From the IMG/VR virus record IMGVR_UViG_2574180220_000002: 9,322 nt of DNA. One strand, 5' to 3'. The notes under the pieces are model-generated. The model saw only the letters and a program-made list of their open reading frames with translations. It did no database searches and was not told where the DNA came from. This DNA is from a virus (taxonomy: Duplodnaviria > Heunggongvirae > Uroviricota > Caudoviricetes). A program made the position numbers and the translations under genes. Shown here piece after piece: positions 2,927 through 9,322 of the stretch; the first letter of the stretch is position 1; every line of letters begins with the position of its first letter.

Positions 2927-3751
2927 TCAGGCGGTGAAAGTACCAATAAGGGTTTCTACTTTGCTGTCTTTGAATTTTTCAACAAGCAGATCACGAAATT
3001 CGTTAGCCATTTCTTCCTGTACTGCTTCCAGCTGAATAATGCGCAGAACCAGTACAGGGCGATCACCAGTGATAATGCTGAGGCGTAATTTAAACGGACG
3101 TTCTTTCAGGCCTTCAAACGGAACGCATTTAAACTCAAATGCTACTGGCATAATGTCTTTGGTTTTCGCTTCGACAGACTCCATCAGAGAGCGTTTGCCG
3201 CTGAAGTCATTGTCTTCAAAATCAGCGGTATGGTTTGCTTCAATCGTGATTTTACGGACCGCCGCAGCCGCTTTTGTTGCCTGAATGGCGTCACCATTAG
3301 CATCAAAGCCCACAAGGTAGTCGGCCCAGTCTTCAATCCATTCTGCCAGTGACTTCTGGGAGTTACGCTCGCCGTTAACAGACAACAGAGCAGAGAACGG
3401 TGCTGTCTTTTTCAGTTTGAGAGTGGCGGTGTTATCTGCGTGACCTGGTTCATCAATAGTACCCAGGTTAAGCACACTGACGGCACGCATATTATCGGCA
3501 TCGATAAAGCAGCGGGTGCCTTCATCTGCAAGATCTTTAGAATAACGGGTAAAGTCATCGATGCTGGCAGTGGAAAGTGCACCACGGAAACGGAAGCGAT
3601 TTAAATTAAATTTTTCCAGATCATGAATGCGGAAATTCTCAGGCAATGCCACAGCATCGGCACCAATCTTACTGATAATTTCATTAACACCCTGAGCAGA
3701 AATAAGGGCATGGATTTGATTAATTGCGGTTGCGTCTAAGTTCTGAGACAT
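2927..3751 (-). CDS. yfdQ: DUF2303-family phage protein (YfdQ-like), function unknown
   Basis: 274-aa ORF with ATG at 3751 and GAGGA 6 nt upstream. Coding-like composition. Length and position (between the 120-aa gene and the HD gene) match YfdQ of CPS-53-type prophages, recalled from memory and not verified. Confidence 0.75.
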
Positions 3752-3816
3752 AATAAGTCCTCACTATATAAAGATATTCAGTGATGAGATAAATAATCAG
3801 TTAATTAAGAACGATA

Positions 3817-4179
3817 TTAATGACCTGCTGCGCGTAGTTTTCCGTCAGGTTCACCGGCAAGAGTCAGTAATTGTCCCTGGTCTTCCTGCAGAATAGTCAG
3901 GCGACCACCGCGATTGACATACATCGGTGTTTCGGTGGTGTCTTCTTCGGAAATTTTCCCGCGGTTAGTCGGGCGAACATATGAGAGTTTGTGTTTGATT
4001 TTCACACGGTTCTCATCAAATGGTTCGATTTCCAGGTTGAGCGAGACCTTACCTTTGGTTTTCGTGTTCATCACACCGGAAGCGACTTCACTGAGAACTG
4101 CGCCGATTTTGGTTTCAAATACGCCGCCGTCCAGCTCCCCGATAAATGCCTGCACATCAGTACTGCGTTCGCTAGCCAT
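3817..4179 (-). CDS. Hypothetical early-left phage protein, about 120 aa (YfdP-like by position and size)
   Basis: The track ORF (3817..4365) begins at TTG, and its first 62 codons are low-complexity (R/C/S/G-rich) and cross a structured non-coding element. ATG at 4179 is preceded by GGGGAG 7 nt upstream and gives MASERSTDVQAF..., 120 aa; ATG at 4197 is an alternative. No recognisable catalytic motif. Confidence 0.6.
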   Translation of the reverse strand: MASERSTDVQAFIGELDGGVFETKIGAVLSEVASGVMNTKTKGKVSLNLEIEPFDENRVKIKHKLSYVRPTNRGKISEEDTTETPMYVNRGGRLTILQEDQGQLLTLAGEPDGKLRAAGH

Positions 4180-4227
4180 TTTGCTGCTCCCCATCATATC
4201 GACCCTGCAAGGTCGGTTGGTTTCTCC

Positions 4228-4327
4228 ACAAAACAGAGAAGAACACCTGCGGTGGCAGCCGCCCGGATGGATTGGGTTATGAGCCCGTCGTCCGGTGATG
4301 CTCTTCTCTGTTTTGTAAAAAGAGCGG
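4228..4327 (-). promoter_or_regulatory. boxA-like motif followed by a long structured hairpin in the leader of the early-left operon (candidate nut/put-type antitermination element or structured 5' UTR)
   Basis: Minus strand reads CGCTCTTTTTACA (4326->4314), resembling boxA (lambda nut CGCTCTTA; rrn TGCTCTTTAACA). It is followed by a perfect 15-bp inverted repeat, ACAAAACAGAGAAGA (4228-4242) / TCTTCTCTGTTTTGT (4302-4316), enclosing 59 nt with nested stems (CCGGA 4263-4267 / TCCGG 4291-4295; GCGG 4249-4252 / CCGC 4259-4262). Lies about 50 nt upstream of the 120-aa gene start. Confidence 0.35.
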
Positions 4328-4860
4328 TACCTGCCGGAAGCAAGTGTACAAACTGGTACCGCCAAAGCAGTGGCTGTTGTGGTGACCGGTGCTGATCTCC
4401 GGCTTGCGGTTATTTCAGACTCTCACGGGCGTTTAATTGCCCCGCCGAACAGCTCTTTTCCGCAATAGCTGCAATGTCTTTCGCGCATCAGTCTGCGCAT
4501 TCACCACAACGCTGAGAGCACTTAGCCAGTTACGGCACCACACTTTGTCGCGGTTCCATAAATGCCCTCATCGTTGCACCCTGGTCTCTTCCCAGGCGTC
4601 AAACCGAATCGCCACGCTGGTTAGGCGTCTTATCAGCATCATCATTGACTTGCACATTCCGGCTACCTAGTTTGTTTGCTCGAGCAAGGAGTGGATTGTC
4701 CCCTTTAACGTCACCAGACCGCTAACGACGCATGTGCCATACGCCGTGTTACAACCAAATTTTGTTAGTACCTTGTTTGTTTGTCTGGAAAGAAAGATAA
4801 AATGAAGTTGCGTATTATGCAAGTGTTTTTGTTGCGAGATATGCAATTTAAAGGGTGATG

Positions 4861-4881
4861 AAAAGCCACCTTTGGGTGGCT
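4861..4881 (-). terminator. Candidate intrinsic terminator downstream of the cI-like gene
   Basis: Stem AGCCACC (4864-4870) / GGTGGCT (4875-4881) with loop TTTG. On the minus strand it is followed by only UUUC, a short U-tract. Lies about 20 bp after the repressor stop (4902-4904). Confidence 0.4.
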
Positions 4882-4901
4882 AATTGATGAGGAGGTAAGG
4901 G

Positions 4902-5594
4902 TTAATTGTGTCGCTTAAGGGTTTGTGACTGGCTGATTAAGACCTTTCCAAAGACCATAAACCGGTGTTCATTTTCGCTGGTAATTCCCCATTCACGGTA
5001 AATCTGGTTATCAGAAATCACCAGTAGTTTGTCAGGTATCATTTGCAGTCGTTTGACATAAATTTTATCATCAAAACCAAATACATAGATACCATCTCCA
5101 TCAAACTGATTGATACTGACATCAACGAAGATGAGATCTCCTGGCTCAATGGTTGGACACATACTGTCCCCACGAACGTTGATAACTTTAATGTGATTGG
5201 CTGGCCGTCCGCCAAACATCGATACAGCATTATCAGTTCTGTATTCAATGGCATGAATCACATCAATGACATCACCGCCCTGGATAAGGCCATTTCCCGC
5301 ACTGGCACTGACATCCAGCATTTCAATACGGAATACATCCTTCACCTGCGCAACATCCTCACTAATACTGTTTTTACATACAGTATTACTTTTGACGTCT
5401 GAGGTAAAGAGATCAGCAATATCAACACCTAAGCTCCTGGCAATATTACTCAGGGCTTGTTCAGTGAATTGTTTCTGCTTACCTGTTTCCAGGCGTGAGA
5501 TATTCGCCGCATCCACTCCTATTGCTTCAGCGAGATCGGCGATTTTCATGTTCTTCGCCTGGCGAAGTTGTCTGACTCGGTTTCCTATGTTCAT
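4902..5594 (-). CDS. cI: CI-type phage repressor (N-terminal XRE HTH, C-terminal S24 LexA-like autopeptidase)
   Basis: 230 aa. HTH: RVRQLRQAKNMKIADLAEAIGVDAANISRLETGK. Candidate Ala-Gly cleavage site in SASAGNG. S24 catalytic Ser in GDSMCP and Lys in YVKRL. Divergent from a cro-like gene across an operator-rich 97-bp region. Confidence 0.9.
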   Translation of the reverse strand: MNIGNRVRQLRQAKNMKIADLAEAIGVDAANISRLETGKQKQFTEQALSNIARSLGVDIADLFTSDVKSNTVCKNSISEDVAQVKDVFRIEMLDVSASAGNGLIQGGDVIDVIHAIEYRTDNAVSMFGGRPANHIKVINVRGDSMCPTIEPGDLIFVDVSINQFDGDGIYVFGFDDKIYVKRLQMIPDKLLVISDNQIYREWGITSENEHRFMVFGKVLISQSQTLKRHN

Positions 5595-5691
5595 GCGTTT
5601 ATTACATTTCTTTATTGCGCGTTAAGCAAATCAACTTGCGCAAAATATTTGCGTGAAATAATATGCTTATCACGCAATATGTGGAGGTAAT
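5595..5691. promoter_or_regulatory. Divergent cI/cro control region with repeated operator half-sites and candidate back-to-back promoters
   Basis: TTGCG/CGCAA half-sites recur as inverted repeats: TTGC-N7-GCAA (5615-5629), CGCAAA-ATA-TTTGCG (5639-5653), TTGCGTGA-N13-TCACGCAA (5649-5677). Candidate rightward promoter: -35 TTGCGC (5636-5641), 17 bp, -10 TAATAT (5659-5664), then GGAGG (5683-5687) and cro ATG at 5692. Candidate leftward promoter on the minus strand: -35 TTGCTT (5629-5624), 17 bp, -10 TGTAAT (5606-5601), 6 nt, then the A of the cI ATG, suggesting a leaderless cI mRNA. Confidence 0.55.
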
Positions 5692-5916
5692 ATGCAATCA
5701 CCATTACGGAATGTGCGTAAGGCGCACGGATTTACTTTGCAGCATGTTGCTGCTGGCGTTCAGGTCAATCCAGCGACGCTGAGTCGTATTGAAAGACTGG
5801 AACAAATTCCATCTATCGATCTTGCAGAACGTCTGGCCAATTTTTTTAAGGATGAAATCAGCGAAATGCAGATTCTTTATCGTATTTCAGGGATGCTCGT
5901 GCCGAACTGGGTATAA
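5692..5916 (+). CDS. cro: Cro-like XRE-family HTH regulator
   Basis: 74-aa ORF with GGAGG SD. HTH: LRNVRKAHGFTLQHVAAGVQVNPATLSRIE. Divergent from the cI-like gene. The C-terminal tail (from about residue 58) overlaps an out-of-frame HTH-coding segment, so the true C-terminus is uncertain. Confidence 0.7.
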   Translation: MQSPLRNVRKAHGFTLQHVAAGVQVNPATLSRIERLEQIPSIDLAERLANFFKDEISEMQILYRISGMLVPNWV

Positions 5917-5954: not shown

Positions 5955-8686
<2,732 letters not shown>

Positions 8687-8687
<1 letters not shown>

Positions 8688-9322
8688 TGGAATTCAGAAT
8701 GAGTGAACAACCACGGACCATAAAAATTTATAATCTGCTGGCCGGAACTAATGAATTTATTGGTGAAGGTGACGCATATATTCCGCCTCATACAGGTCTG
8801 CCAGCAAACAGTACCTATATTGCACCGCCAGATATTCCGGCTGGCTTCGTGGCTGTTTTCAACAGTGATGAGTCATCGTGGCATCTCGTTGAAGATCATC
8901 GGGGTAAAACGGTTTATGACGTGGCTTCCGGCGACGCGTTATTTATTTCTGAACTCGGCTCATTACCGGAAAATGTTACCTGGTTATCGCCGGAAGGGGA
9001 GTTTCAGAAGTGGAACGGCACAGCCTGGGTGAAAGATGCAGAAGCAGAAAAACTGTTCCGGATCCGGGAGGCGGAAGAAACAAAAAACAGCCTGATGCAG
9101 GTAGCCAGTGAGCATATTGCGCCACTTCAGGATGCTGTAGATCTGGAAATCGCAACGGAGGAAGAAACCTCATTGCTGGAAGCCTGGAAAAAGTATCGGG
9201 TGTTGCTGAACCGTGTTGATACATCAACTGCACCTGATATTGAGTGGCCTGCAACCCCTGTTATGGATAATCGTTCCTGTTGTAGCCACAGTCACGTCAT
9301 ATACAAGAACTTGCTGGCCTAA
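8687..9322 (+). CDS. tfa: Tail fibre assembly protein (Tfa family chaperone)
   Basis: 211 aa, starting [54 protein letters not shown]..., the conserved Tfa N-terminus of lambdoid/Rac/e14-type prophages. Translationally coupled to stf through the ATAATGG overlap. The last ~17 residues ([18 protein letters not shown]) look like a non-canonical extension. Confidence 0.88.

Follow-up and report, generated by a model that had tools for sequence, protein, structure and literature searches.

Why would a prophage keep about 720 base pairs (bp) without a gene between its repressor and the first gene of its leftward early operon? The question is raised by positions 4180-4901 of IMG/VR record IMGVR_UViG_2574180220_000002, a tailed-phage sequence of 9,322 nucleotides (nt). 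We call this whole stretch, as it was analysed, the window; it is a heavily deleted lambdoid prophage. A sequence-only reading of the gap had offered three suggestions: the promoter-operator of the leftward early promoter pL, a decayed N/rex/sieB-type gene, or one or more non-coding RNAs. The last of these is strongly supported by covariation in three modules, which we name U, H and H', and the RNAs are far more extensive than that reading could see. In this SfV/mEp460-type lambdoid prophage, the pL operon of leftward early genes probably begins with the gap as its untranslated leader, assembled from portable RNA modules that fold on the minus strand; the leader would be partly terminated and then processed. 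The descriptive part of this reading is well supported: the pL leader consists of folded RNA modules on the minus strand, and no gene, intact or decayed, is present. Compensatory changes, together with G·U pairs confined to one strand, mark four separate structures in the gap. P1 has the modules again, with the same orientation, in its ban/tRNA operon, and so do phiV10/SPN1S-like phages in their tRNA-Arg cassette. Finally, an intrinsic terminator lies between the first gene and the block formed by U, H and a body resembling the Rfam RNA STnc100.

Module U has the most elaborate structure (Table 1). Its consensus comprises the helices H1, H2 (UCYGG/CCRGG), H5 (ACGNC-[YUCACCA]-GNCGU) and H6 (CCUCG-GAAGAGA-CGAGG). 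Two pseudoknots are proposed. In the first, GCACAU would pair with AUGUGC, both sides being invariant. The second pairs CACC with GGUG and has covariation support: the lineage of the window has AACC/GGUU instead. We aligned 21 diverse sequences (alignment A3) and used slid pairing partners and 500 shuffles as controls. Pairing was found in 98.7% of the cells, against 25-46% when partners were slid. There were 48 cells with double changes, against 13.5 in the shuffles, and ten pairs with compensatory changes; none of the 500 shuffles reached either value.

This module is also very common. Its invariant 19-mer GGUAGCCGGAAUGUGCAAG alone occurs in at least 120 IMG/VR contigs and in genomes of at least 12 genera of Enterobacteriaceae, and module U was found in 1,833 of 5,426 complete E. 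coli genomes (34%). Among phages it occupies 78 places in 78 records of three morphotypes (lambdoid, P1-like and epsilon15/phiV10-like), with a single place in each of the 45 phage rows listed. It is single-copy in the relatives L001 and L005, although both also cover the start of the rightward (pR) operon. None of the 39 sampled rows covering it is annotated there, and no inspected record annotates it as RNA. It matches no Rfam 15 family, either in the window or at six divergent loci, full-text literature searches for the module or its invariant sequences returned nothing, and a preprint on the P1 transcriptome holds no information on U or H RNAs. The region thus seems to contain at least one undescribed and widespread family of structured RNAs, module U. 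Two further observations concern this module. In E. coli 2012C-4502, an annotated CRISPR array (NZ_CP027440.1, 1868888-1868919) contains a 100% match to 32 nt of module U (about 4700-4731 of the window); this length fits a type I-E spacer, so that leader DNA was apparently acquired as a spacer. At four loci (L026, L061, L150 and L199) the sequence directly after module U is another conserved block that resembles RNA, AUAUCAGCCAUUCAC...GCUUAGCGGGACUGGAAGAGUUACCACUUGGAGACGGUCC....

Module H is a long hairpin with a variable apex. Its consensus reads 5'-CACAACAGGUAAGAGCAUUG, then 11-118 nt of variable apex, then CAGUGCUCUUUCCGUUGUG, GUGAAU and GCGCAGGCUGAUGCGC, and a motif scan of IMG/VR found it in at least 120 contigs. 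Among 59 distinct copies (alignment A1), 85.9% of the cells paired, against 34-54% with slid partners, and 72 cells carried double changes, against 24.7 in shuffles, 72 being reached in none of 500. The minus-strand fold of 4480-4600 has z = -4.6 relative to shuffles. The stem has about 20 bp, interrupted by a bulge and a mismatch, and its length suits an RNase III substrate (at least about 20 bp). The covariance model R1 finds one strong H copy in the window (43.4 bits, E = 7e-8), three in P1, four in a P1-like plasmid and one each in CFT073 and SfII, all on the strand of the surrounding operon. A T-loop-like hairpin is present in 13 of 94 apices (14%), compared with 0.5% of random 50-mers. 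The first base of tRNA-Arg directly follows the 3' arm of H in phages like phiV10 and SPN1S. The small hairpin GCGCA-TCAGTC-TGCGC at 4483-4498, remarked on before, is confirmed in the sequence.

Module H' follows the same plan as H: a long stem, here of about 28 bp and again of RNase III-substrate length, then the tail GUGGAGAAACYAAC and, last, a small hairpin. The fold (4196-4322) has an energy of -59.7 kcal/mol and z = -6.9. We found 31 distinct homologues; RNAalifold on 13 of them gave 39 pairs, 10 with compensatory double changes. A U-tract always precedes H' and pairs with the GGAGAA of the tail, and the module ends about 10 nt upstream of the Shine-Dalgarno sequence of yfdP. Model R1, which copes poorly with the long apical insert, scores H' at only 6.3 bits. 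Hence we treated H' as a separate subfamily and analysed it separately. On the minus-strand reading, H and U contain frequent or invariant G·U pairs, which become A·C mismatches on the other strand; we therefore assign the structures to the minus strand.

The modules travel between phages. Searches with blastn divide the gap into blocks with differing distributions. Positions 4375-4523 are 95% identical to unannotated DNA beside tRNA-Thr/tRNA-Asn in P1-like phage-plasmids, 4583-4760 are 78% identical to the trnI-ban spacer of P1, P7 and D6, 4504-4747 are 82% identical to DNA directly upstream of tRNA-Arg in phiV10-like phages, and 4216-4322 match ST64B and Klebsiella phages. The P1 copies of these blocks have the orientation of the minus strand of the window.

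What accompanies module U in other phages is informative on its possible role. Across many immunity types it lies 5-70 nt downstream of a predicted sigma-70 promoter flanked by the palindromic operators proper to each lineage, and often directly after the terminator of the repressor operon. Promoters of other lineages include TTGACA-17-CATAAT and TTGACC-17-GATACT, and in some lineages the module begins about 10 nt after the -10 element. The phiV10-like phages have U, then H, then a tRNA-Arg abutting the 3' arm of H, and this is the promoter-tRNA-Arg cassette of phiV10/SPN1S-like phages. P1 is the exception, since U there follows trnI. The order on one strand is P1ban, a dicF-like sequence, tRNA-Asn, tRNA-Thr, the H copies, trnI, U and ban, in the C1-controlled ban/tRNA operon, and module U would again be the 5' end of a processed RNA. 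The first genes downstream of U are mutually unrelated (YfdP, the Ban helicase and several families without assigned function), which suggests a general role rather than one specific to a gene. Among ten first-gene families none is an antiterminator or N-like. At no fewer than 20 loci an intrinsic terminator lies 6-45 nt ahead of the first open reading frame (ORF) downstream of U.

In the window, the earlier idea that the gap includes the pL promoter-operator is borne out by inference from two operators (direct repeat D4) and a TTGCAT-17-TATCTT arrangement, whose -35(TTGCNN)-17-TATCTT layout is conserved in relatives of the same immunity type. A third TTGC-N7-GCAA site, TTGCGCGTTAAGCAA, lies at 5615-5629 in the cI-cro region, and the same form also precedes module U in the relatives L136, L159 and L222. 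A sigma-70-like promoter had also been proposed on the plus strand, pointing towards the repressor terminator. Its elements are present, TTGACT followed after 17 bp by TAGTTT (4668-4673), with TTGACT one base away from where it had been placed, at 4645-4650. The promoter itself is not supported: TAGTTT exists only because of one window-specific base (CUAGG, where relatives have CCAGG or CCGGG), and the motif is antisense to an invariant segment of RNA.

Table 1. Features of the gap and of its flanks in the window; arrows give 5' to 3' on the minus strand.
Feature	Position	Strand	Details and basis
Module U, structured RNA of about 170 nt, multi-helix	4747->4579	minus	alignment A3; no Rfam match
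Module U, H1	4747->4725	minus	loop GGCACAU
Module U, invariant 19-mer	4667->4649	minus	GGUAGCCGGAAUGUGCAAG
Module U, hairpin H5	4629->4612	minus	loop UAACCAG
Module U, pseudoknot partner of H5	within 4606->4598	minus	GGUU
Module U, hairpin H6	4597->4579	minus	
Module H, long hairpin	5' arm 4577->4563; 3' arm 4520->4505	minus	variable apex; alignment A1
Module H, tail and small hairpin	4504->4483	minus	GUGAAU, then GCGCA-GACUGA-UGCGC
STnc100-like body, about 135 nt	4510->4376	minus	closing strands GUUGUGGUGA (4510->4501) and UCACCACAAC (4385->4376); inverted repeat I5; fold
Body hairpin, just ahead of closing strand	4402->4386	minus	CCGG-AGAUCAGCA-CCGG
Intrinsic terminator	4363->4317	minus	GGCGGUACC...GGUACCGCU, then CUUUUU; sequence; homologous hairpin at STnc100-model terminator positions in CFT073 and SfII
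Module H', second long hairpin with T-loop-like GGGCUCAUAACCC in the apex	5' arm 4316->4292 (U-tract extends to 4322); 3' arm 4252->4228	minus	
Module H', tail and small hairpin	4227->4201	minus	tail GUGGAGAAACCAAC; GACC-UUGCAG-GGUC
Putative pL	4794..4822	minus	-35 TTGCAT 4822->4817, 17-bp spacer, -10 TATCTT 4799->4794; start expected at about 4787
Operators OL, two of 15 bp	4832-4846; 4808-4822		TTGCGAGATATGCAA; TTGCGTATTATGCAA; TTGC-N7-GCAA form; direct repeat D4
Repressor-operon intrinsic terminator	4880->4861	minus	GCCACC-CAAA-GGUGGC-UUUU; sequence; SfII annotates a terminator at the homologous place
CI-like XRE/S24 repressor, 230 amino acids	4902-5594	minus	
Cro-like gene	5692-5916	plus	
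yfdP Shine-Dalgarno GGGGAG and ATG 4179	4177..4192	minus	sequence; RefSeq annotation of relatives
yfdP	3817-4179	minus	start ATG 4179 per RefSeq annotation of a 98.6%-identical locus
AlpA-like excisionase, yfdR, yfdQ	between integrase and yfdP	minus	ORF list and RefSeq relatives
Integrase	851-1981	minus	ORF list and RefSeq relatives

How might such a leader work? Once the repressor is inactivated, RNA polymerase would start at about 4787 and transcribe U first, then H and the STnc100-like body. A partial stop at the terminator, with a 3' end at about 4317, would yield a non-coding RNA of some 470 nt, probably trimmed to smaller stable RNAs, and polymerases reading through would express yfdP, yfdQ, yfdR, xis and int. 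The long near-perfect stems of H and H' are expected to be substrates of RNase III. Their cleavage would free the variable apical 'cargo' and cut the yfdP-to-int message off from the leader. With its dense folding, the untranslated RNA of 600 nt would offer Rho no site to load. Module U always has the 5' end of the RNA and would be the likeliest element to influence either the transcription complex or the stability of the RNA. For this transcript the start, the 3' end, the processing and the read-through are all predictions.

Several observations sit badly with this account. The proposed pL has 7 of 12 consensus positions, and a scan with consensus promoters and terminators did not report it. 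The same scan missed the large-loop terminator at 4363->4317: its fold reaches -17.6 kcal/mol, but the hairpin has a branched loop of 23 nt and, at z = -1.4, is barely more stable than shuffles. In P1, module U runs directly into the leader of ban with no terminator, and a terminator-linked role therefore cannot be its sole function. A strict terminator is found at most 90 nt upstream in 5 of 94 H copies and a gene start at most 90 nt downstream in 4 of 94, counts after which we dropped the idea that H usually lies between a terminator and a gene start; the context of H is heterogeneous. Last, neither simple processing nor shielding from Rho explains why the single-stranded tails are near-invariant and the junctions of U invariant, and the leader reading does not account for the small hairpins, for the invariant tails (GUGGUGAAU, GUGGAGAAAC) or for the occurrence of the modules beside tRNA genes.

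One might ask whether the main product is instead a small RNA (sRNA) acting in trans. The segment 4520->4317 would then be an Hfq-binding sRNA gene of the STnc100/PasD kind, terminator included, and everything else in the gap no more than its promoter and leader. The canonical STnc100 lies downstream of stx2B and overlaps the Hfq-bound sRNA EcOnc27 (PMC12711010; PMC12370729), and it is related to PasD (bioRxiv 10.64898/2026.05.13.724894). Like STnc100, PasD and EcOnc27, the body in the window is prophage-encoded, and it shares with them the motif UGGUGAAU followed by a hairpin, the closing helix UGGUG(A)...(U)CACCA, a CCGG hairpin ahead of the closing strand and, at the end, an intrinsic terminator. 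When we looked for the architecture of the Rfam model, we found the closing helix UGGUG/CACCA (UGGUGA/UCACCA), the first hairpin after AAU, the hairpin ahead of the closing strand, and the terminal hairpin with its U-tract. The P1-like copy of the body has a compensatory closing pair, GUUGUGAUGA/UCAUCACAAC. Matches below threshold (37.5-39.5 bits, the gathering threshold being 47) occur at the equivalent place in CFT073, SfII, P1-like plasmids and L150, and in CFT073 and SfII the hairpin that the model aligns as its terminator is a homologue of the terminator in the window. The window, however, has an unrelated interior that does not score: the STnc100 model (RF02076) has no match at E <= 10 in 3700-5100, nor in the 271 nt of 4290-4560. 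Its copy is in a pL leader, whereas STnc100/PasD copies have been described from the late region, where they follow stx2B or Q. The body is akin to STnc100 in architecture and flanks, and this is not membership. The first position of the Rfam model falls within the 3' half of module H, and the model apparently cuts off part of a larger structural unit and captures the hairpin family only in part. The consensus scan found no dedicated promoter between U and the body, and an sRNA would leave unexplained module U, H' and the modules beside tRNAs in P1-like and phiV10-like phages. We regard an sRNA as the main product as possible, if on balance unlikely. The two readings are compatible, and both can hold.

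Could module U itself carry the polymerase through the terminators? HK022, a lambdoid phage without N, does this with put, a nascent structured RNA downstream of an early promoter with terminators downstream (PMC9378689). By analogy, U would be a protein-independent processive antiterminator in cis, folding and binding RNA polymerase to allow read-through of the terminator ending at 4317 and of later ones, and yfdP to int would be expressed without N. The setting is similar: U is promoter-proximal in nearly all lineages, as is putL (PMC9378689), downstream of predicted early promoters. Terminators separate it from the first ORF and leave no space for a promoter (4363->4317 in the window). No N-like gene turns up in the ten first-gene families or in the annotated 6-kb left operon of Stx2a_WGPS2. 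The genes served are unrelated, and a complex fold with invariant junctions is typical of RNAs that bind macromolecules. Yet U and put share no similarity in sequence or structure. U has about 170 nt and at least five helices plus pseudoknots, put about 70 nt and two stems. HK022 has no copy of U: blastn of 31 module U representatives against its PL/PR region gave only a 14-nt match, inside nun, and R1 finds no significant match in HK022. U is present once per genome, whereas HK022 has putL and putR, one in each early operon, and there is the P1 module with no terminator before ban. We consider this role possible but less likely than not. It is compatible with the leader reading favoured here, in which it would be the key step.

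Within that leader reading, if any component has a specific molecular partner, this is most likely module U, and modification of RNA polymerase in the manner of put is our leading candidate for what it does. A broader proposal, which we make tentatively, is that U is a new class of leader RNA acting directly on the transcription or RNA-decay machinery of the host, for example as a second put-like RNA of unrelated structure that renders RNA polymerase resistant to terminators, or by self-processing. It would be a portable 'early-operon head' of lambdoid, P1-like and epsilon15-like temperate phages of Enterobacteriaceae, with H and H' as RNase III-bracketed cassettes for small, variable and sometimes tRNA-like cargo. 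The nut and put early leaders taught much of what is known on the control of transcription elongation. Module U heads repressor-controlled operons in P1, in Stx2-converting and in phiV10/SPN1S-like phages, and one in three complete E. coli genomes carries it. Were it to modify RNA polymerase or the stability of RNA, this would explain how a left operon of 6 kb, with int and xis, is expressed through terminators without N, and module U would be a compact new regulatory part.

The leader can also be compared with better known early leaders. Like the N-leader with nutL of lambda and the early RNase III sites of T7, it is an untranslated early leader with long hairpins just ahead of the ribosome-binding site of the first gene, and its stems of 20-28 bp have the size of RNase III substrates, cleavage being a prediction here. 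The commonest 3' arm of H contains the boxA-like run UGCUCUUU, followed by a 5-bp hairpin. In contrast with nutL, this run is paired, and freely replaced by compensatory changes; it is not conserved as sequence, and no N-like gene was found among the ten first-gene families or in the left operon of Stx2a_WGPS2. We therefore rejected a boxA/boxB nut reading.

Another likeness is with the RNAs of phage tRNA operons. In T4, the species 1 and 2 RNAs are stable RNAs other than tRNAs that are co-transcribed with phage tRNA genes. These, and the dicF-like region of P1, are structured RNAs in tRNA operons and presumably released by processing. H and U similarly flank genuine, detected tRNA genes in P1-like and phiV10-like phages. 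The window differs in having no tRNA (a search with ARAGORN and the Rfam tRNA model gave zero), and a relation in sequence is not expected. The idea of a Y RNA (YrlA) was abandoned, the sole match having overlapped genuine tRNAs in a P1-like locus.

Alternatively, the modules might have no role as RNA and be selfish or neutral repeats, such as miniature inverted-repeat transposable elements (MITE-like) or recombination linkers, or else hairpins acting as DNA, in the manner of attC or of a single-strand origin. H is present several times per genome (three copies in P1, four in P1-like plasmids), the base of its stem (AAC...GUU) is conserved around a variable centre, which is superficially attC-like, and modules are shuffled between unrelated phages. 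Against this, many conserved G·U pairs exist on one strand only, a pseudoknot covaries, and all copies follow the orientation of the surrounding operon. We reject the attC-like and MITE-like readings because of the strand-specific G·U pairs, because module U is single-copy and tied to a promoter, and because no transposase or integron integrase is associated. This alternative is very improbable.

Finally, intact relatives bear on whether a gene was lost here. About 660 complete E. coli genomes share the gap (720-780 bp) at 95-99% identity, and parts of it are found in 3,080 of the 5,426. The same DNA is carried by the intact phages mEp460, PhiR63_1, phiSTEC1575-Stx2k, Stx2a_1447 and Stx2a_WGPS2, the left operon of the last having the order CI, gap, YfdP, YfdQ ... 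xis, int. PhiR47_1, cdtI, Ayreon and Stx2c phages are more distant intact carriers. Plaque-forming phages thus carry this DNA, no ORF in it is kept across relatives, and the decayed N/rex/sieB-type gene proposed earlier is not supported; nor is the gap empty. Other claims on its lack of genes held up. The repressor ORF ends at 4902 and the yfdP ATG is at 4179, RefSeq annotates nothing between them, and this interval has no RefSeq feature in any relative listed. Scanning the window against Rfam, whether at gathering or at permissive thresholds, gave no match in the gap. The sole minus-strand ORF of at least 60 codons, 3817-4365, is an in-frame upstream extension of yfdP from a TTG; other minus-strand ORFs touching the gap are 4667-4846 (59 amino acids, aa) and smaller ones. 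The ORFs of 25 aa (minus, 4500->4423) and 18 aa (plus, 4802-4858) exist as described. The former has its AUG in the conserved tail of H and is not a gene, because many relatives have a stop after six codons (MRRLMR*). A leader peptide from this AUG (MRRLMR...) was also discarded: the frame is not kept, and no spacer separates it from the SD-like GGUGA.

A real or recently decayed protein gene, whether of N/rex/sieB type on the minus strand or mEp460_036/_037 on the plus strand, is scarcely credible and already largely refuted by the comparisons: 'hypothetical proteins' do appear at this place in mEp460, PhiR63_1 and a small number of further GenBank records, and a 'frameshifted hypothetical protein' beside yfdP in CFT073, but the ORF annotated in mEp460 has 77 aa in the window and 86, 101, 122, 148 or 177 aa in relatives at 87-98% identity, with nothing above 71 aa at 77% identity, whereas the RNA helices are kept by compensatory changes, the long invariant runs lack a third-position pattern, RefSeq/PGAP makes no call in the gap and the CFT073 'pseudogene' covers module H' and the terminator.

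Existing annotations over these RNAs deserve mention. The frameshifted hypothetical protein of CFT073 (L004, 3045-3354) and mEp460_036/_037 (L005, 2603-3156) lie over H', the terminator and the STnc100-like/U region. In P1 (L008, 4104-4723), the plus-strand coding sequences upl and plp lie over minus-strand copies of module H (R1 matches at 4104-4193, 4351-4433 and 4605-4695), and plp also overlaps tRNA-Thr. In P1, upl and plp are probably spurious ORFs over structured RNA, and the 'hypothetical protein' calls in mEp460 and the CFT073 pseudogene likewise appear to be spurious ORFs over RNAs.

As to the surroundings, yfdP has in-frame ATGs at 4197/4194 (MMGSSKMASE...) and at 4179, the stronger Shine-Dalgarno (GGGGAG) preceding 4179, the choice of RefSeq. 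To the right of the cro-like gene only fragments remain (a truncated methylase, the C-terminus of J, stf and tfa). The methyltransferase ORF (5955-6443) has a foreign N-terminus and adjoins a C-terminal J-like host-specificity fragment (6448-7065), followed by stf and tfa; this patchwork of the right arm (5955-7065) indicates a large internal deletion. Intact relatives have isrK and C4 antisense RNA, above the Rfam thresholds, at 7710-7898 (L001) and 5205-5393 (L005, mEp460), in or beside the Rha/antirepressor gene of the pR operon, a site deleted from the window. The window does have a full-length match to Rfam IS009 (RF02111, 229.5 bits) at 9030-9228 on the plus strand, within a tail-fibre-assembly-like ORF (8687-9322).

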